From positions 1-64,000 of the IMG/VR virus record IMGVR_UViG_3300033121_001334: DNA of 64,000 nt. One strand, 5' to 3'. The translations under genes were made by a program, and so were the position numbers. The notes beneath the pieces were generated by a model. That model was not told the origin of the DNA. It ran no database searches and worked only from the letters and a program-made list of their open reading frames with translations. Below, piece after piece: positions 4,002-21,071 of the stretch. This stretch comes from a virus (lineage: Duplodnaviria; Caudoviricetes). Position 1 is the first letter of the stretch; each line of letters starts with the position of its first letter.

Positions 4002-4040
4002 TGACCCCGCTGGGACTCGAACCCAGGACCAACGGATTAA
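4002..4040 (-). pseudogene. 3' half of a split tRNA-Lys
   Basis: TTAATCCGTTGGTCCTGGGTTCGAGTCCCAGCGGGGTCA: intact T arm; acceptor strand pairs with the 5' half at 4814-4847. Confidence 0.8.
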
Positions 4041-4249
4041 TGCAAAAGAAGAGCAGACAAGACGATATTGACGATGAATCCAACAAAAGCAACAATAACT
4101 GCTTGCTTGCCTCTCTTTCCTTTATTGCTCCAATCTATTGCTCCAAGTAAAAGAGCAACAAGAACGCAAACAGGAAAAATAAAGGTTCCTATTGCAAAAC
4201 CCATTGCAATCTGTCCCAAAATTGTTGGCCTGCTTTGCTGATTGTTCAT
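4037..4249 (-). CDS. small membrane protein (cassette cargo)
   Basis: 70 aa, two hydrophobic helices; its TAA stop lies in the anticodon loop of the tRNA 3' half. Confidence 0.7.
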   Translation of the reverse strand: MNNQQSRPTILGQIAMGFAIGTFIFPVCVLVALLLGAIDWSNKGKRGKQAVIVAFVGFIVNIVLSALLLH

Positions 4250-4686
4250 ATTTGCTCCAACCTTTCCTTCGTGAGAACAAAGTCATCGTGGAAGTTTAGT
4301 CCCTTGGTTTGACCGTTCCTGGTCTTCTCTTTCCTGACCGCCCAACTTCTTGTTCCTACAAAATGTTCTGGTTTGAGTAGGTACATATCCCCTGATTCAT
4401 GATCATAGCAGACAATCAAGTCACAGTCTTTTTCTGTGTATCCTTTGCTTGTGCCCTTATACCAATTAGTTGTTCTTAAGGAAAATTCTCTTGCGCCAGA
4501 AGAATTTATTCGTTCGCTCGATTTGACTTGAACTTTCTTGAGTTTGCCGTCTATTACGGCAACAAAGTCAAATGGCAGATTGTCGCTTAAGGGCGCAAGG
4601 ACCGGAATATCGAACTTCGCAAACTCCCCCATTACTATTAATTGAGCTTTTTCGCCTTTACCTTTTGGATTCATATACACCTCCAA
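4246..4686 (-). CDS. PD-(D/E)XK endonuclease (free-standing, homing-type)
   Basis: PFDFVAV...KKVQVKS motif, DCDLIVCY; lies within tRNA remnants. Confidence 0.8.
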   Translation of the reverse strand: MEVYMNPKGKGEKAQLIVMGEFAKFDIPVLAPLSDNLPFDFVAVIDGKLKKVQVKSSERINSSGAREFSLRTTNWYKGTSKGYTEKDCDLIVCYDHESGDMYLLKPEHFVGTRSWAVRKEKTRNGQTKGLNFHDDFVLTKERLEQI

Positions 4687-4730
4687 ACATCTATTTCGTA
4701 GGTGTATATAAAACTCCTTCTTTTATTGAA

Positions 4731-4803
4731 TGCCCCCTGCTGGATTCGAACCAGCGGCCACTCGCTTAAAAGGCGAATGCTCTAACCACTGAGCTAAGAG
4801 GGC
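4731..4803 (-). tRNA. tRNA-Lys(TTT)
   Basis: GCCCTCTTAGCTCAGTGGTTAGAGCATTCGCCTTTTAAGCGAGTGGCCGCTGGTTCGAATCCAGCAGGGGGCA; cloverleaf, no encoded CCA. Confidence 0.92.
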
Positions 4804-4813
4804 GATATTTTTC

Positions 4814-4847
4814 AAGTCCGACGCTCTACCAACTGAGCTACGGGATC
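4814..4847 (-). pseudogene. 5' half of a split tRNA (Lys-type)
   Basis: GATCCCGTAGCTCAGTTGGTAGAGCGTCGGACTT, ends in the anticodon loop. Confidence 0.8.
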
Positions 4848-8775: not shown

Positions 8776-8845
8776 AAACCCTTGGTAGGATTCGAACCTA
8801 CTGGACTCCGTATGAAACCGGAGCGCTCACCAGAGCAGCAAGGTT
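8776..8845 (-). pseudogene. atypical tRNA-like element (8-nt anticodon loop GTTTCATA)
   Basis: Good T arm GTAGG-TTCGAAT-CCTAC, stem CTCCG/CGGAG, 4-nt D loop, imperfect acceptor. Confidence 0.6.
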
Positions 8846-8919
8846 TAACCTTTTCCCAGGATGATCAGTCCCAGTACGCAAGGTTGGCCGTTATATTATA
8901 GAGGAGGCCAAACCTCTAA

Positions 8920-11039: not shown

Positions 11040-11798
11040 ATGAATCAGTGTAGAAAATGCAACAATCAAATACCAGCAACCGTTAGAATAAACAATAAGA
11101 GACGAAATCTTTGCGGAAGAAAGTTTTGCCTTGAATGCAGTCCTTTTGGTTCTCACAATACAAAACCAGATGATCCTGCAAGAAAATCTGTTTATGGACA
11201 GGAAAGATACAAGAAAAATCCTTATTCAAACTGGGCTGAGCATGCAAAAGAGTCTCATAGAAAAAGTACCGTAAACCGAGCAGCAAAACTAAAGCAGAAA
11301 ATTGTGAATCTGAAAGGCGGTAAATGCTCTTTATGCCAGAACTCAAGCATAGACGTTTTGACTTTTCATCACAGAAATAGAGAAGACAAGTTATTCAATC
11401 TTGACAAAAGTTCATTGAGGTCTTACTCGTTAGAAGAAATAGCAAAAGAAATAGAAAAATGCGATCTTCTGTGTTTTAATTGCCACATGGAAACTGAAGC
11501 CAAACACGAAGCAGTAAAAGGCTCAGGAAAGCAGAATGTTAGAGGATGGGAAAGAAAGCAAAAAGCAATTGAAGAATTGGGAGGCAATTGTTCACAATGT
11601 AAATATGACAAATGCATAAGATCTCTGTCTTTCCATCACAGAGATCCATCTACAAAATCTTTCCCTTTAGATATTAGAGCCTTCAATGGTTATTCTTGGG
11701 AAAAACTACAAAACGAAATCAACAAGTGCGATCTGCTTTGTTTGAACTGTCATCGAAGCCTAGAGAACTCTCTAAGAAAAAGCAGGTATCTGCAATAA
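11040..11798 (+). CDS. HNH endonuclease with two tandem HNH domains
   Basis: Two GGxCxxC...FHHR...KCDLLCxNCH units; stop abuts the tRNA 3' end on the opposite strand. Confidence 0.9.
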   Translation: MNQCRKCNNQIPATVRINNKRRNLCGRKFCLECSPFGSHNTKPDDPARKSVYGQERYKKNPYSNWAEHAKESHRKSTVNRAAKLKQKIVNLKGGKCSLCQNSSIDVLTFHHRNREDKLFNLDKSSLRSYSLEEIAKEIEKCDLLCFNCHMETEAKHEAVKGSGKQNVRGWERKQKAIEELGGNCSQCKYDKCIRSLSFHHRDPSTKSFPLDIRAFNGYSWEKLQNEINKCDLLCLNCHRSLENSLRKSRYLQ

Positions 11799-12085
11799 TG
11801 GGCAAACCGGGATTCGAACCCAGAACCTAGCGATTATGCCTACTGACTTGAGTTTCCCCAAGAGTCGGACTGTACCTTCACCCGTTTCACTTCCTTACGG
11901 AAGAAAAGTTAGGGTGGCTGCCGTCCAGTCTCTACACCTTCGCTTTTCAGCGCTTGGCTCGGGATTGGCGTGAGTCTTTCGACCTTTAGCTTTCCCCGAC
12001 TTTGACAGCTTACTCATACAACATTCCTATTGTATGGACCCAAGTTTTCTTAAGTCGCTTGCTCTAACCGTTGAGCTATTTGCCC
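11799..12085 (-). tRNA. tRNA(CAT), probably Ile2, interrupted by a group I intron
   Basis: Exons 12053-12085 and 11799-11838 join to GCGA-CT-CAT-AA-TCGC; anticodon arm resembles enterobacterial ileX. Confidence 0.88.
11839..12052 (-). mobile_element. group I intron (214 nt, no ORF) after U33
   Basis: P1 GACU/UAAG-AAAA-CUUG/GGUC with U-G at the splice site; R GTAGAGACTG; S AAGGTACAGTCC; terminal G. Confidence 0.9.
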
Positions 12086-12109: not shown

Positions 12110-12183
12110 ATATCCCCTGTTTTTGAACCTGGTATTGACCGCTAACCGACTCACCCAGTCTCTAACCGCTGAGCTAATCGCCC
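12110..12183 (-). pseudogene. degenerate tRNA remnant
   Basis: 5' part GGGCGATTAGCTCAGCGGTTAGAG is canonical; the rest is decayed. Confidence 0.55.
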
Positions 12184-14675: not shown

Positions 14676-14704
14676 TAGGCACAGCCGGACTCGAACCGAC
14701 AAGC
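14676..14704 (-). pseudogene. 3' remnant (T arm + acceptor strand) of split tRNA-Val
   Basis: GTCGG-TTCGAGT-CCGGC-TGTGCCT-A; pairs with GGGCGCA at 15411-15417. Confidence 0.7.
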
Positions 14705-14875
14705 TTACTTCTTTTCAAGTTCCTCAATACGTTTTTCAAGAGATTCAACATACTTCATAAGAGGTTCAAATGCTCTTGAAAGTCGGTTTAATCTGTCTCT
14801 TAGATTGCCACCAGAAGGAATCGCATTATCTGTTCTGGTTAGACTATCAATTTCTTTTTTAATATCAGAATTCAT
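14705..14875 (-). CDS. small coiled-coil protein (cassette cargo; start MNSDI)
   Basis: 56 aa, GGAGG SD just after tRNA-Val. Confidence 0.6.
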   Translation of the reverse strand: MNSDIKKEIDSLTRTDNAIPSGGNLRDRLNRLSRAFEPLMKYVESLEKRIEELEKK

Positions 14876-14886
14876 TTTTCCTCCAA

Positions 14887-14961
14887 TAGGCCCTCGGGGT
14901 GACGATCCCCGTACCTCTTCGGTGTAAACGAAGCGCTCTAGCCAGCGTGAGCTAAGGGCCT
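14887..14961 (-). tRNA. tRNA-Val(TAC), non-canonical T loop
   Basis: AGGCCCTTAGCTCACGCTGGCTAGAGCGCTTCGTTTACACCGAAGAGGTACGGGGATCGTCACCCCGAGGGCCTA. Confidence 0.8.
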
Positions 14962-15374
14962 GTATGTCGCTCCTGGTAGTGGAGCTTAGCATGGCAATTC
15001 CTGCAAAGAACCATGCATTTTTCTATCTCTTTCATAATGCGTTCTAGGCTCATGCCTTTACGAACCATTATGCTAACTTCAATTTCTTTTTCCTGCGGAT
15101 CTCTGTGATGAAAGTCAAGACAAGCAATATGTGATTCTCGACAAACTTCACAAGGATGATTTTTCCTGTAATCGTTTAGAAACTCCCTGTTTCTTTCAAT
15201 AATCTTTTTGCGCCAGATTTTTGCATCTTTTTTCTTTTGGGCTGCATTTTCTGGATTTTGATACCACTTCTTATTGTATTCGCTATGGTAAGCGAGTTTC
15301 TTTTCTCTTTCTTTTTGAGGCATAACAGGTTCTCCTGTTATACCTATTCGACTACTTCTTTTACACTCCTTCAA
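14952..15374 (-). CDS. HNH endonuclease
   Basis: CEVC...CLDFHHRDP...KCMVLCRNCHAKLH; last codons overlap the tRNA-Val 5' end. Confidence 0.88.
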   Translation of the reverse strand: MKECKRSSRIGITGEPVMPQKEREKKLAYHSEYNKKWYQNPENAAQKKKDAKIWRKKIIERNREFLNDYRKNHPCEVCRESHIACLDFHHRDPQEKEIEVSIMVRKGMSLERIMKEIEKCMVLCRNCHAKLHYQERHTGP

Positions 15375-15377
15375 TTT

Positions 15378-15417
15378 CCGTGTAAAGGTGGCACTCTAGC
15401 CATTGAGTTATGCGCCC
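15378..15417 (-). pseudogene. 5' half of split tRNA-Val(TAC)
   Basis: GGGCGCATAACTCAATGGCTAGAGTGCCACCTTTACACGG, truncated after the anticodon loop. Confidence 0.8.
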
Positions 15418-17665: not shown

Positions 17666-18859
17666 TTAGTTCTCCTCGTCGCCGCCCTCGTCGTCGTCGT
17701 TGCGGCGACCTTCGCTGGTCAGCGACCAGCCGCCATTGTCGTCTCGGTCAGCCAGGCCTTGAGCCTTGTAGTTCGACAGGTTCTTGCTCAGCTTCTCGCG
17801 AGTAAGCTCAGGGAATTCGACAAGAAGCCTGTCGTAGATACCGCCAAGGTCCAGCCGAGAATGAGTTGTGAGAATGTCTTTGACGCTGGGAAACAGTCTC
17901 AGCCTCTTGCCTCTTTGGGGCTTGGTCTGCTTTGCGGTCTTGATAGAGGGATGTCCTCCAAGCTCGGCAACTCGTTGGTCGAGGGCTGCGAACTTCTGAA
18001 AAGCAAGTTCAACGGCGATTTGCGCTGCCTTGGCCGCTTTCTTTGCAAGACCATACTCGGCAACGGCCTTCATCCGCTCTTCTTCAGCGAGCTTGAGAGA
18101 GGCGCTGTCTTTGCCCAAAAGAACGTCAAGGTCGATGAGGTCGTCGTCGTCAAGGTCGATTGGAAACGAAGGCTGCGGCTTCGCAACCGCAAGAATGGAA
18201 GCGGGAATGGCCGGCGCAGTGGGGCGAGAAGGTTGAGCGACGGTTGGAGGTGTCGGCGGAGGTGTCTGCGGCTTGAATGGCAAGGCTTCGGGGGTAGAAG
18301 GAGCCGTCAGAACCTCAAGGAGAGCGTCATGGGCTTCCCCAATAGGCAAGAGCTTGGCGTCGTCTTGCATGGGAACCTTGTTGATTTTCCCAATCGCTCT
18401 CATGCCGTCGCCGTGGTCCCTCCACTTGTTGGCGAGATTGAAGTTCTGCGTCCAACGCCTTTCTTGCCCGGCCCAAACGGCTTTCATCTTCGCGCTGAAG
18501 ATGACAAACTCGCCAGAGGGAGCGCCAGTCGGGACAATGCTCGTTGGGATAGACAGTCTCTCTCCGAGCGGCTTCCGAAAATCAACAGCAGACGGCATAT
18601 TCATTACCTCCGTGATGTCAAAGTCGCAACCGCTCTTCCAAAGATAGATATTGGAGAGCTTTTCTTCTTCGTCATGTCCGTGCTTGAAGGGCCGAACGAT
18701 GGCCCTTCCATTGCCCAAGACCTTCTTGAGAATGCCCCTATTGGGCTTCCCCCTTATGTCTTTGTTGATGAGCTTGATATTGCAGATTCGCCCGCTCTGT
18801 TGAGCAAGCTCAAGGAGCTTGAGGGCTTGAGCTTCTGAAATTCCTTGACGGCTTTCCAT
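17666..18859 (-). CDS. hypothetical protein, Pro-rich linker, coiled coil and C-terminal winged helix
   Basis: 397 aa; LDLGGIYDRL...LSKNLSNYKAQGLADRDDNGGWSLT. Confidence 0.7.
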   Translation of the reverse strand: MESRQGISEAQALKLLELAQQSGRICNIKLINKDIRGKPNRGILKKVLGNGRAIVRPFKHGHDEEEKLSNIYLWKSGCDFDITEVMNMPSAVDFRKPLGERLSIPTSIVPTGAPSGEFVIFSAKMKAVWAGQERRWTQNFNLANKWRDHGDGMRAIGKINKVPMQDDAKLLPIGEAHDALLEVLTAPSTPEALPFKPQTPPPTPPTVAQPSRPTAPAIPASILAVAKPQPSFPIDLDDDDLIDLDVLLGKDSASLKLAEEERMKAVAEYGLAKKAAKAAQIAVELAFQKFAALDQRVAELGGHPSIKTAKQTKPQRGKRLRLFPSVKDILTTHSRLDLGGIYDRLLVEFPELTREKLSKNLSNYKAQGLADRDDNGGWSLTSEGRRNDDDEGGDEEN

Positions 18860-18912
18860 AGTCTAGAAGTCTAGGCCGAAAGTTTAGTCTTGGGCTTTCT
18901 CCGAGTGCAAAA

Positions 18913-18963
18913 TGGCCCCGATGGGATTCGAACCCCTACGCCTTTTTACGGGCTACGGATTTT
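18913..18963 (-). pseudogene. 3' half of split tRNA-Leu
   Basis: AAAATCCGTAGCCCGTAAAAAGGCGTAGGGGTTCGAATCCCATCGGGGCCA; long variable arm; pairs with GGCCCTG at 20026-20032. Confidence 0.82.
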
Positions 18964-19423
18964 TCACATTTCTTCCTCTCCAAGTTGGAGTCAATGCGTG
19001 GCAGTTGCAACACAAAAGTTCTAGATTTTCTTTTCGGTTATCAGTTCTATCACCATTTTTGTGTTCAATTTCTAAAGGAGCGATCTCTCCTTGCCATTCT
19101 GTTATTTTACACTTTTCACATTGATGACCTCGTTCCGAAATCAAATGTGGTTTTAAAGAAGAAAGCTTATTGTATTCTGACCAGTCTTTTAATCTTTTCC
19201 CAACGTTCCAAGCACTACCAGTCCAATGAGAACAATCCAGATTTAGCCTCTGGAGTGTTTTTCTCATATTGTTGTAGTTGCCACCTGCAACTCTGAGATC
19301 AAGGGCCTTCAAAAGCTCTGCCATCGAGTTGACTTCTTTACACTTTTGAATAATTTGTTCATCGGTGTAGCTTCTGTATTTTCTTGCCATAATCCACCTC
19401 CATAGATGGATTACAATTGGCAA
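18953..19423 (-). CDS. HNH endonuclease
   Basis: CEKC...LEIEHKNGDRTDNRKENLELLCCNCH; ORF ends in the tRNA 3' half. Confidence 0.9.
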   Translation of the reverse strand: MPIVIHLWRWIMARKYRSYTDEQIIQKCKEVNSMAELLKALDLRVAGGNYNNMRKTLQRLNLDCSHWTGSAWNVGKRLKDWSEYNKLSSLKPHLISERGHQCEKCKITEWQGEIAPLEIEHKNGDRTDNRKENLELLCCNCHALTPTWRGRNVKNP

Positions 19424-19456
19424 TCGAATTATCCTTCTTCGTCTACCAATTCCTAA

Positions 19457-19775
19457 TGGACTGACCGGGACTTGAACCCGGATGGTGTTTGAATACCTGC
19501 GGATTTTCTTACCACTTCAGCTTTCGCCGACTGCCCTTTTCCATCAAGGTACTTGGGGTCTTACGTTTGTGGTCTGGACTGTACCTTCATCCGTTCTGCT
19601 TCTTACGAAGAGTTTTGGATGACCCAATTGCAGTCTCTACGGCTTCCTTTGTAGGTTTGCCTCGGAATTGGGATTTTACACCGTTTCCCGATACTCTGGG
19701 TTTCATTTACAAGATTACTCTTGTAACGCTCAAATTGTCTAAGTCCGCTGCGTCTGCCAATTTCGCCATCAGTCC
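19457..19775 (-). tRNA. tRNA-Leu(TAA) with group I intron
   Basis: Exons 19741-19775 and 19457-19507 join to GCGGA-CT-TAA-AA-TCCGC. Confidence 0.9.
19508..19740 (-). mobile_element. group I intron (233 nt, no ORF) between anticodon positions 34 and 35
   Basis: 5' AGACAATTTGAGC recalls the cyanobacterial/plastid trnL intron; R CCGTAGAGACTG; S AAGGTACAGTCC; terminal G. Confidence 0.9.
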
Positions 19776-19782
19776 AATTATT

Positions 19783-19983
19783 CTATTCTTTGCGCGAATA
19801 ATTTTGCACAGACAATTTATCTATTTGTTCTTGTTGAGATTTAATAATACTTAAGATTTTCAAAAAATCTCCAGCCATAACAAAAAAAGTATTATCTCCC
19901 TTAATAGGAAATTTTCCTCCTTTACCAGCTTTATCCATTCTTTCTTTAACGTTTTGAATAAGTTCCTCAATCTCGTTCTTCAT
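19783..19983 (-). CDS. hypothetical protein (cassette cargo)
   Basis: 66 aa, GAAAGGA SD. Confidence 0.65.
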   Translation of the reverse strand: MKNEIEELIQNVKERMDKAGKGGKFPIKGDNTFFVMAGDFLKILSIIKSQQEQIDKLSVQNYSRKE

Positions 19984-19993
19984 ATTTGTCCTT

Positions 19994-20389
19994 TCAAAAA
20001 GTCCGATGCGTCTGCCGTTCCGCCACAGGGCCGATAATCTGAGAAACAGTCATTTTGCGAACAGGTAAAATGTTGTGGTCCAAGAAGTGATTGAGGCAAT
20101 CTTCCACTTCGTCCAAGAAGCTATCGCAGGCGGCAATTCTGTTAGAGGGAAGATCTTCTCTCATTTCAAGAATCGTTCTGTAAATCGAAATCAAGTCAAT
20201 AACTTTGCATTCGATTTTAGATTCTCGCGCAAAAGTAAAAGCGTCCGAAATGAGATCCAAATCGGGCTTTCTTGCGGATTTCAATGATTGAAATGCAGAA
20301 AGAGCTTTTTCTTTGCGAAGCTCGTTCTGGTTTGGAGAGTGAATATCTACTTTAATAGAACGAAAATCAAGAGTATCAAGCATCGTCAT
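19994..20389 (-). CDS. hypothetical protein reading through the tRNA-Leu 5' half
   Basis: 131 aa; C terminus GPVAERQTHRTF is encoded by the tRNA remnant. Confidence 0.6.
   Translation of the reverse strand: MTMLDTLDFRSIKVDIHSPNQNELRKEKALSAFQSLKSARKPDLDLISDAFTFARESKIECKVIDLISIYRTILEMREDLPSNRIAACDSFLDEVEDCLNHFLDHNILPVRKMTVSQIIGPVAERQTHRTF
19999..20032 (-). pseudogene. 5' half of split tRNA-Leu
   Basis: GGCCCTGTGGCGGAACGGCAGACGCATCGGACTT. Confidence 0.82.
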
Positions 20390-20391
20390 AA

Positions 20392-20465
20392 TAGCTCCAG
20401 AGAGATTCGAACTCTCAACCTTACCGCCTTAAACGGTTTGCCTCTGCCGATTGAGCTATGGAGCC
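20392..20465 (-). tRNA. tRNA-Leu(TAA), short variable loop
   Basis: AACCG-TTTAAGG-CGGTA; 74 nt. Confidence 0.82.
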
Positions 20466-20481
20466 AAAGTTTAGTTCTAAA

Positions 20482-20555
20482 TGCTCTTGAGTGGATTCGA
20501 ACCACTAACAACTAGATTCTGAGTCTAGCGCCTCTGCCGGTTGGGCTACAAGAGC
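20482..20555 (-). tRNA. tRNA-Leu(CAG), short variable loop
   Basis: CTAGA-CTCAGAA-TCTAG; 74 nt. Confidence 0.88.
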
Positions 20556-20568
20556 GAATTTTACTAAA

Positions 20569-20642
20569 TGCCCAGGACTGGATTCGAACCAGCACTGTAT
20601 TGATTTTGAGTCAATCGCCTCCTGCCGTTGGGCTACCTGGGC
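20569..20642 (-). tRNA. tRNA-Leu(CAA), short variable loop
   Basis: ATTGA-CTCAAAA-TCAAT; 74 nt. Confidence 0.88.
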
Positions 20643-20663
20643 TTTATTGAAGTATTTCCATAA

Positions 20664-20746
20664 TGCCCCTGAGAGGATTCGAACCTCCACGTCCTTTCGG
20701 ACACGAGATCCTAAGTCTCGTGCATCTGCCGTTTCGCCACAGGGGC
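20664..20746 (-). tRNA. tRNA-Leu(TAG)
   Basis: CGAGA-CTTAGGA-TCTCG; long variable arm GTCC-GAAA-GGAC. Confidence 0.93.
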
Positions 20747-20987
20747 CTATTTTATTTAGGCCATTTTACACGGACTTGTAAAATTCCAGACAGCTTTGAT
20801 GTCTTCTTCAATCGGAAACTCATGCGATCTATTTCCGTCAACAATAACCTCTTTTACTGATTCAGTAACGCAAATTGCAGAAACTAATTTTTGAAGCTCG
20901 CTCAGAACATCGACCTGAAAATTGTAAGTGTCCTCAGTGGTTATAACAACGATTCTTTTTGTACTCATTATGATCCTTTCTTTTAAA

Positions 20988-21071
20988 TGGCCTTGACAGG
21001 ACTCGAACCTGCACTCTCTTGCGAGAACCACCACCTCAAGGTGGCGCGTCTGCCAATTCCGCCACAAGGCC
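20988..21071 (-). tRNA. tRNA-Leu(GAG)
   Basis: CCACC-TTGAGGT-GGTGG; long variable arm CTC-GCAA-GAG. Confidence 0.93.

Follow-up and report, generated by a model that had tools for sequence, protein, structure and literature searches.

An HNH endonuclease gene and an intron-bearing tRNA-Leu(UAA) inside a broken tRNA-Leu(UAA) gene of a huge phage: a probable cut-and-replace cassette

To our knowledge, homing endonucleases are thought to persist within genes only by means of introns or inteins that remove themselves, and to reside between genes otherwise. Here we describe a locus that may represent a third solution to nuclease persistence, namely to break the target and to bring a resistant copy of it. 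The locus lies in the first 64 kb (64,000 nucleotides, hereafter the window) of the 74.6-kb IMG/VR virus record IMGVR_UViG_3300033121_001334 (Caudoviricetes). Since the completeness of this record was estimated at 15%, the window represents a piece of a huge phage genome, and its DNA was found again in wastewater and river metagenomes. In the window, a tRNA-Leu(UAA) gene (the outer gene) is interrupted by an insert that contains a second tRNA-Leu(UAA) gene with an intron of its own (the inner gene) and the gene of a free-standing HNH endonuclease, all features of the locus being encoded on the minus strand (Table 1). We consider it probable that the locus is a homing-endonuclease 'cut and replace' cassette that sits at its own target site and supplies an immune replacement tRNA. 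Related loci are designated by L numbers and sequencing runs by X numbers throughout.

Several described systems come close to this arrangement. The layout of collaborative homing (reviewed in PMC3984707; see also PMC6083498) is displayed for tRNA-Leu(UAA) by six loci related to ours (L010, L156, L186, L192, L207 and L210), whereas in the window the intron-bearing gene and the nuclease gene are inserted as a pair in, and kill, a second, intron-less copy of the target, which is a tRNA gene and would be cleaved at the insertion site. Among phage tRNA genes, the free-standing GIY-YIG endonuclease SegB of T4 and T6 recognizes a T-loop motif and promotes the inheritance of the T4 tRNA region, its homologs being enriched beside tRNAs (PMC2330249, PMC13096335), and F-TflI/II/IV of T5 are free-standing endonucleases of a tRNA cluster as far as they are cited in PMC2330249. 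Our locus resembles these systems in that the nuclease gene lies among phage tRNA genes, and it would resemble them in cutting the tRNA DNA of relatives without the nuclease and carrying neighboring tRNAs along. It differs from SegB, which is intergenic and directed at a T-loop motif of many tRNAs, in that the HNH gene is tied to a single isoacceptor and anticodon site, lies inside the target and is accompanied by a replacement with the same anticodon. Introns in the anticodon loop of bacterial tRNAs comprise, according to the references in PMC3984707, the ORF-less introns of cyanobacterial and plastid tRNA-Leu(UAA) and the Synechocystis tRNA-fMet intron that encodes I-Ssp6803I (PDB 2OST). The inner intron has in common with these mobile tRNA introns the U34/A35 site of tRNA-Leu(UAA), the U.G pair at the 5′ splice site and the terminal G, relatives of the HNH protein are intron-encoded at this site, and the enzyme of another cassette of the window, the Lys cassette described below, is an I-Ssp6803I-like PD-(D/E)XK nuclease. 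Unlike them, the outer interruption is no intron and cannot splice, and function is kept by the spare gene and not by splicing. HNH-encoding tRNA-Leu introns in phages were not encountered in the literature searched.

In the case of fractured genes (Dassa et al. 2009, PMC2677866), a phage gene is split by the gene of a free-standing endonuclease. Here as there, the pieces of a broken phage gene enclose a free-standing homing-endonuclease gene that has control elements of its own, but fractured protein genes stay functional via split inteins, whereas in our locus the broken gene appears to be abandoned and the insert contains a full replacement. Synthetic 'cleave and rescue' and 'home and rescue' drives have reportedly been established in insects with an engineered Cas9 (by Oberhofer et al. 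in 2019 and Kandul et al. in 2021). These combine a nuclease that cuts an essential gene with a linked, cleavage-resistant rescue copy inserted at the cut site, as the present locus would; unlike them, the latter is a natural, protein-guided phage element and only a putative drive. In none of the nearest systems does a nuclease gene both enter its target and bring a replacement along, no such combination for tRNA-Leu of phages was encountered in the papers searched, and a cassette of nuclease and spare tRNA inside a tRNA gene was not described in the literature searched, most subscription journals lying outside this search.

Table 1. Features of the broken tRNA-Leu(UAA) locus, of its sister loci and of related cassettes (coordinates refer to the window)
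Feature	Coordinates or loci	Strand	Remarks
Outer tRNA-Leu(UAA), 5′ half, positions 1-34	20032..19999	minus	GGCCCTG...CATCGGACTT, ending ...GGACTT; ortholog in L148/L150 is the 5′ portion of their intact tRNA
66-aa ORF (ORF66), orphan cargo	19983..19783	minus	only in this lineage; starts 15 nt after the 5′ half
Inner tRNA-Leu(UAA), 5′ exon	19775..19741	minus	ending ...GGACTT
ORF-less 233-nt intron of the inner tRNA, assigned to group I, at U34/A35	19740..19508	minus	basis: Rfam, alignment, splice-site bases
Inner tRNA-Leu(UAA), 3′ exon	19507..19457	minus	AAAATCCGC...TCAGTCCA
Leader hairpin predicted to sequester Shine-Dalgarno sequence and ATG of the HNH gene	19384..19423	minus	-18.5 kcal/mol, z -4.2
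Free-standing HNH endonuclease gene, 145 aa	19390..18953	minus	basis: Pfam, PHROG; final codons and stop inside the outer 3′ half
Outer tRNA-Leu(UAA), 3′ half, positions 35-76	18963..18913	minus	starts AAAATCCGT (AAAATCCGTAGCCCG...CGGGGCCA); G.A mismatch in T stem
Empty site	L148, L150		a single, intact tRNA-Leu(taa) flanked by an ORF131-like and an ORF397-like gene
Filled site, intron-bearing spare	window, L009, L149		intron-bearing tRNA and HNH; clean junctions at T34 and A35
Filled site, short spare	L006/L146, L014-16, L017		74-nt intron-less tRNA-Leu(taa) and HNH; 5′ half eroded to ~position 26 or 31
Intact short (type-I-like) tRNA-Leu(UAA)	20391..20466	minus	empty site of a second HNH and tRNA cassette that is present in L006
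Lys cassette	4002-4847	minus	tRNA halves with acceptor GATCCCG/CGGGGTC, exposed by ARAGORN with introns allowed
Val cassette	14676-15417	minus	same design as the Leu and Lys cassettes

A first-pass annotation made from the DNA letters had proposed that a tRNA-Leu gene with the acceptor GGCCCTG/CGGGGCC and a CT-TAA-AA join is split at 18913-20032. This was confirmed by joining the outer halves (34 + 51 bases) in silico, as ARAGORN calls the product a tRNA-Leu(taa) with a length of 85 nt. The resident type-II tRNA-Leu(UAA) is thus opened between U34 and A35, the classical intron site of tRNA-Leu, by an insert of 1035 nt, and the T34/A35 junction is unambiguous and cannot slide because a T follows T34 and an A precedes A35. 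The insert begins with a short A-rich spacer, which is expanded by ORF66, and continues with the replacement tRNA-Leu(UAA), a masked leader and the HNH gene, in keeping with the small ORF, the complete tRNA-Leu(TAA) with a 233-nt intron at position 34/35 and the HNH gene that the same annotation had recognized inside the split. An integrase-type tRNA island is not indicated, as the insert holds ORF66, the tRNA and the HNH gene only, the break lies in the anticodon loop and no duplication is present. The surrounding region is an array of minus-strand tRNA genes, with five Leu-anticodon tRNAs at 20391-21071 followed by more clusters.

The two exons of the inner gene, when joined in silico, give a flawless tRNA-Leu(taa) cloverleaf, and ARAGORN detects the gene unaided if introns are allowed. 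With default settings of ARAGORN and with Rfam at the gathering score, neither the intron-bearing inner gene nor the broken outer gene is reported, which may serve as a warning for annotation that tRNA finders overlook both kinds of genes. Judged from its sequence, the 233-nt insert of the inner gene can be accepted as a group I intron. It occupies the trnL-type position between U34 and A35 of tRNA-Leu(UAA) (CTT-intron-AAAATCC), the exon end ...ACUU pairs with UUUGAG of the intron in P1, which places a U.G pair at the 5′ splice site, and the last intron bases are ...GGUAAG, with G in the terminal position. In an alignment of five intron sequences, among them those of L009, L010 and L007 and including introns that pass the Rfam model with 61 and 56 bits, 27 of the 55 consensus pairs display compensatory changes, and the P7 strands (GUAGAGACU and ACAGUCC) are invariant, in support of a conserved paired core (P3-P8). 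Related introns that pass the Rfam group I model RF00028 are present in L007, L156, L186, L192, L207, L210 and L222 and elsewhere in the window (11846-12061, 61.2 bits), the latter being 73% identical to the inner intron over 96 nt. The inner intron is presumably self-splicing.

The HNH gene product matches the Pfam family HNH_3 (26.0 bits, cutoff 24.8) and PHROG 10822 'HNH endonuclease' (E 8e-33). The catalytic H/N/H residues and both CxxC pairs belong to a set of positions (H110, N122, N129, H131, C91, C94, C127 and C130) that is invariant in 30 HNH relatives, and an AlphaFold model (pLDDT 78) consists of three N-terminal helices and a C-terminal beta-beta-alpha unit. A comparison with the sequences of the PDB returned nothing at E ≤ 1, and Foldseek found no match of the model in the PDB at E ≤ 0.001 but weak rows of HNH domains (McrA, GVE2 HNH, Cap5 and Gme HNH); for the N-terminal three-helix part, the fold and sequence searches of the PDB yielded no class. 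The leader between the inner tRNA and the HNH gene comprises 66 nt and folds into the hairpin listed in Table 1. Masking of the Shine-Dalgarno sequence and the ATG by a hairpin is a trait of phage homing-endonuclease genes, for example that of I-TevI. An equivalent hairpin with unrelated stem sequences is found upstream of 8 of 11 HNH relatives and of the nuclease genes of the Lys and Val cassettes. ORF66 belongs to no Pfam or PHROG family, has no homolog beyond its own cluster among 5.8 billion proteins and does not resemble the 56-aa ORF in the Val cassette; it is present in L009 and missing from the otherwise similar cassette of L149.

To which genes the HNH family is attached was assessed with relatives from IMG/VR, of which 461 were found and 80 retrieved, the 48 with at least 50% identity being used for counts. 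A tRNA-Leu(taa) lies within 150 nt of the HNH gene in 26 of these 48, and any tRNA-Leu in 31, both numbers being lower bounds because ARAGORN by default misses intron-bearing genes; once introns are allowed, many relatives fall inside a tRNA-Leu(taa). Some are encoded within group I introns of tRNA-Leu(UAA) at the same site (CTT-intron-AAAA, with a G at the intron end), where the HNH ORF resides either in the P6 loop (L167-L171 and L173) or near the 5′ end of the intron (L182, L200 and L222, the last with an Rfam core of 55.6 bits beside the ORF); L224 is a further intron-encoded case. In the six loci with the collaborative-homing layout named above, the HNH gene is free-standing beside an intron-bearing tRNA-Leu(UAA), and the ORF-less introns score 50-60 bits with Rfam, except that of L010, which was identified by eye. 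More distant members (L018, L020, L022 and L023) adjoin a tRNA-Leu(taa) in either orientation according to protein look-ups. Since members of the family are found within one and the same site, next to it and between its two halves, the logic of homing endonucleases indirectly suggests that it is aimed at the 34/35 site of tRNA-Leu(UAA). The possibility that the HNH enzyme does not recognize tRNA-Leu DNA, which would have spoken against the proposal of the first-pass annotation, is indirectly countered by these placements.

The layout of a putative collaborative-homing pair is present, in that the cassette is inserted exactly where the intron lies in the tRNA and introns at this position encode relatives of the HNH protein. 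The same coincidence would also be explained if the whole 1035-nt insert had arisen from an HNH-encoding group I intron at the outer 34/35 site, whose ribozyme decayed once a second tRNA-Leu(UAA) made splicing dispensable, so that a free insertion never took place. This origin fits the exact position of the insert and the existence of intron-encoded relatives (L167, L182, L200 and L222), which fall outside the nested clade in a midpoint-rooted tree. Against it, Rfam at E ≤ 1 over 18700-20200 gives a single group I match, the inner intron, and no other ribozyme remnant, the gap between the 5′ half and ORF66 measures just 15 nt, the base preceding the outer 3′ junction is A, C or T depending on the lineage and never the conserved G, and the HNH ORF extends into the 3′ half. 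A complete tRNA gene within an intron would moreover demand another event anyway. We therefore regard a degenerate mobile intron as an unlikely source of the insert.

Syntenic relatives, including those with empty sites, were reached via homologs of the flanking 397-aa protein. The first-pass annotation had suggested a search for the empty site, and such sites indeed exist, L148 and L150 carrying an intact tRNA-Leu(taa) at the same place. The cassette is hence polymorphic in its presence at an orthologous site, with an uninterrupted tRNA in the empty allele, and the filled site was found in five lineages (window/L009, L149, L006/L146, L014-16 and L017), in every locus of which the HNH gene adjoins A35. 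Because the nested layout recurs in independent assemblies (L009, L149 and Logan contigs of the runs X2, X4, X5 and X6), it cannot be attributed to chance or to an assembly artefact. In L010, the intron-bearing tRNA is followed by the HNH gene, and outer halves are absent. Other searches contributed little: blastn of 1.8 kb against a phage GenBank collection gave no match, scans of IMG/VR with the 397-aa protein as a single sequence and as a profile returned the L006 contig only, a search of IMG/VR for the DNA pattern of the intact allele yielded just three unrelated tRNA-Leu genes, and a metagenome scan for this pattern gave, among the matches listed, ordinary bacterial tRNA-Leu genes.

The history of the HNH element is incongruent with that of the host genomes. 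The closest backbone relative of the filled L146 is the empty L148 (flank protein 81% identical), whereas the HNH proteins of L146 and L006 are 99% identical at a flank protein identity of 77%. On the DNA level, L006 and L146 share 92-100% identity from the 5′ half to just beyond the 3′ half, compared with ~80% alongside. The HNH proteins of the window, L009, L149, L010, L017, L006 and L146 form one clade (98/94), although in the backbones of L010 and L017 the flank protein is only 25-40% identical. This seven-member clade is unresolved inside, and a separation of HNH proteins with intron-bearing companions from those with short tRNA companions was dropped as a reading of the tree.

Alternatively, the locus might be a recombination scar that arose independently of the nuclease, by illegitimate recombination among similar tRNA genes of huge-phage arrays, with the HNH gene as a mere neighbor. 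Orphan tRNA fragments do occur in these arrays (L010 2400-2432, the 5′ fragments of L014 and L149, and ~12110-12180 of the window), and mosaic identity patches are present in these genomes. A scar, on the other hand, does not account for a break at the same nucleotide in independent lineages that coincides with the intron site, for the HNH gene adjoining A35 in all filled loci, for the attachment of the HNH family to tRNA-Leu(UAA) in dozens of unrelated phages and even inside its intron, or for a replacement anticodon that always equals that of the broken gene, in the Lys and Val cassettes as well. We judge this explanation quite improbable.

The outer gene appears to be a dead relic of the insertion. 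The joined halves are identical to the intact tRNA of L148 at the same site in 78 of 85 positions, and the downstream flank is shared with L148. The acceptor contains one G.U pair. Intact natural tRNA-Leu genes (L003-L005) likewise have U27.U43 and are letter-identical in the anticodon arm, and the G.A mismatch in the T stem is the sole true defect. Two T-arm alleles can be distinguished, alpha (AGGGG-TTCAAAT-CCCCT) in L006, L009 and L146 and beta (GTGGG-TTCGAAT-CCCAT) in the intact L148. The window combines the 5′ strand of alpha with the loop and 3′ strand of beta and L149 the reverse, so that each of these reciprocal chimeras, which differ at few sites, has a mismatch; they look like recombination or conversion tracts that end within sequence freed from selection. 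Compared with L009, the outer halves differ in 3 of 72 positions and the intron in 9 of 233, while none of the 86 positions of the inner exons is changed. In other lineages, the 5′ half is cut at ~position 26 in L006/L146, where the anticodon-stem strand is gone, and its acceptor strand is unable to pair with the 3′ half in L014, although the HNH protein of this locus is identical to that of L017. It is because of these chimeric or mismatched T arms and the truncated or mismatched 5′ halves elsewhere that we take the outer gene to be dead, and the view of the first-pass annotation that the split is a protective adaptation is not upheld.

The 131-aa ORF upstream of the split gene (ORF131; 19994-20389, minus strand) runs through the old 5′ half in the window, L006 and L149 (ending ...SQIIGPVAERQTHRTF and stop), while its homolog in the empty-site locus L148 ends 13 nt short of the tRNA. 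This extension looks like a by-product of the death of the outer gene.

Could the outer halves nevertheless be expressed and form a functional tRNA-Leu(UAA), either by being joined or by pairing in trans, such that the phage possesses two active isodecoders? The acceptor strands covary across lineages (C6-G67 in L006, U6-A67 in L017 and U6.G67 in the window), and the variable and T stems are perfect in L006, L009 and L017. This covariation is accounted for equally well if the live alleles that received the insertions, or that served as donors of conversion, were different ones, for example those found in L148/L150. The outer junctions moreover offer no ribozyme, bulge-helix-bulge motif or complementary leader, and the inner ribozyme could join only the outer 5′ half to the inner 3′ exon, a product that ARAGORN rejects as a tRNA. 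Together with the missing anticodon stem of the 5′ half in L006/L146, the unpaired acceptor of L014 and the T-stem mismatch in the window and L149, this renders a functional split tRNA very improbable.

If the locus is a cut-and-replace cassette, the HNH enzyme would act on co-infecting relatives and cut or nick their intact tRNA-Leu(UAA) DNA at position 34/35 or close to it, the old halves flanking the cassette would serve as homology arms, and repair of the break would copy the whole cassette into the cut gene. The insertion would destroy the target site of the old gene. In the replacement gene, the ORF-less group I intron would have this effect, since it occupies the same position, in line with the logic of collaborative homing (PMC3984707). 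The old gene would hence be immune because it is split, and the spare because the intron splits the same site. Splicing would then remove the intron from the RNA and leave the phage a working tRNA-Leu(UAA), by which the decoding of UUA and UUG would be kept.

The first-pass annotation had assigned a different purpose to these interruptions, namely that intron and split protect against an anticodon-targeting nuclease, which we considered as an enzyme of the host. Phage tRNAs are indeed reported to counter tRNA-cleaving defenses (PMC13096335, PMC11464382), and the array contains unusual short Leu-anticodon tRNAs. After splicing, though, the anticodon loop does not differ from that of an intron-less tRNA, and an intron can therefore not protect the mature tRNA on the RNA level; the split gene gives no tRNA at all, and nothing at the locus resembles a tRNA repair system. 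Evasion of an RNA-level defense thus seems hardly credible, and what may be retained of the idea is protection of the DNA site against the HNH enzyme of the cassette itself.

Several points weigh against the cassette reading. Cleavage specificity, splicing and present-day homing are properties that we infer, and the mechanism of the first insertion is likewise conjectural, being probably an illegitimate capture at a break made by the HNH enzyme. Taken alone, the inner intron reaches 21.8 bits (E 0.007) with RF00028 (19554-19750), below the gathering score of 50. The phages are mosaic elsewhere, too, and since further patches of 94-97% identity are present in these genomes, the identity of the cassettes is suggestive but no exclusive proof of homing. 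The 5′ junction varies by lineage (position 34, ~31 or ~26) and L149 possesses stacked orphan 5′ halves, for which reason simple two-armed homing is insufficient to explain every locus. The intron-less replacement tRNA of L006/L146 keeps 17 bp (CGGACTTAAAATCCGTA) identical to the presumed target, so that immunity there would require a recognition that reaches further out. Finally, contigs from public DNA and RNA libraries display the filled, unspliced form only, with no joint that skips the cassette or the intron, such contigs being uninformative on transcription, on splicing and on whether the empty allele is absent. In run X4, a 'skip' of 267 nt was discarded as the tRNA of another organism (34 foreign letters, 20-nt side).

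The stacked halves of L149 (1220-1345) are two 5′ tRNA-Leu halves upstream of the working tRNA with its intron. An A-rich spacer of identical sequence (..AAATAAGGAGAAAA) follows both of them, and only the first half pairs with the single 3′ half, which suggests successive invasions that each left a 5′ fragment behind.

Members of the HNH family occur in four states: (i) encoded within the intron of tRNA-Leu(UAA), (ii) free-standing next to an allele whose intron has no ORF, (iii) free-standing next to alleles that lack an intron and (iv) in a cassette that does not depend on splicing, kills the target in which it lands and brings a presumably immune spare. One enzyme family and one site may thus trace a path from an intron-encoded nuclease via an intron with a neighboring nuclease to a cut-and-replace cassette with an intron as shield. 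It is conceivable, and we propose it tentatively at somewhat less than even chances, that the locus descends from a mobile group I intron and acts as a natural 'home-and-rescue' gene drive, and it would then be a natural counterpart of the engineered rescue-type drives. If the fourth state homes actively with the dead halves as arms, selfish nucleases would need no self-splicing host element. Such cassettes would continually overwrite the tRNA repertoires of phages, which would provide a possible mechanism for the fast turnover of tRNA genes in huge phages and explain why their arrays contain odd short Leu tRNAs and so many scattered tRNA fragments. With one enzyme of 145 aa and a few 85-bp substrates, the system lends itself to tests of how mobile introns are assembled and disassembled.

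Further cassettes are present in the window and its relatives. The ortholog of the intact short tRNA-Leu(UAA) at 20391-20466 is split in L006 (1797-2467) at C32/U33 by a second HNH gene (1885-2361) and another short tRNA-Leu(taa), with identical outer flanks, and an RNA-library contig of run X5 contains the same 776-nt insert at 20423/20430. The broken tRNA of the Lys cassette would be Lys(UUU) if broken at 34/35 and Thr(UGU) if broken at 35/36. The cassette contains a tRNA-Lys(ttt) (4731-4803), a masked leader, the gene of a PD-(D/E)XK endonuclease (4246-4686; PF11645 with 74.6 bits, PDB 2OST with E 6e-7) and a 70-aa membrane ORF. In the Val cassette, the 5′ part of a tRNA-Val(TAC) through position 37 is followed by a masked leader, an HNH-like ORF with CxxC/H motifs and no Pfam match, an intact tRNA-Val(tac) (14887-14961), the 56-aa ORF and a T-arm/acceptor remnant (~14676-14704).

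The second group I intron of the window (Rfam 61 bits) resides in a 73-nt tRNA at 11799-12085 on the minus strand. ARAGORN designates this tRNA as Leu(taa) with the intron at 36/37, but the splice rules (a U preceding the 5′ site, a G preceding the 3′ site and a P1 of 8 bp) favor an intron at 33/34 (CT-intron-CATAA, with G as the last intron base) and thus the anticodon CAU. It is adjoined on the plus strand (11040-11798) by an ORF of 252 aa that contains two HNH-like repeats but has no match in Pfam.

A long variable arm defines bacterial tRNA-Leu. Short Leu-anticodon tRNAs (taa, cag and caa) of 74-76 nt that are without this arm and keep the A73 discriminator are present in the window (20391-20642), L006, L014, L017 and L146, and such tRNAs serve as spares of the intron-less cassettes. 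The broken tRNA of L017 (2688-2719 + 3441-3491) is near-identical in its D, anticodon, variable and T arms to a common bacterial tRNA-Leu(UAA) (metagenome loci L144, L089, L090 and others) and differs only in its acceptor stem, so that the host gene might carry the same nuclease site. A further ARAGORN tRNA of the window (8776-8846, minus strand) has a four-base anticodon (ttca) and is absent from the Rfam tRNA calls at the gathering score. The orphan fragments mentioned above lie between intact array genes, the fragment of L010 being a T-arm and acceptor remnant and that of the window having a D-arm-like start (GGGCGATTAGCTCAGCGGTTAGAG) on the minus strand.

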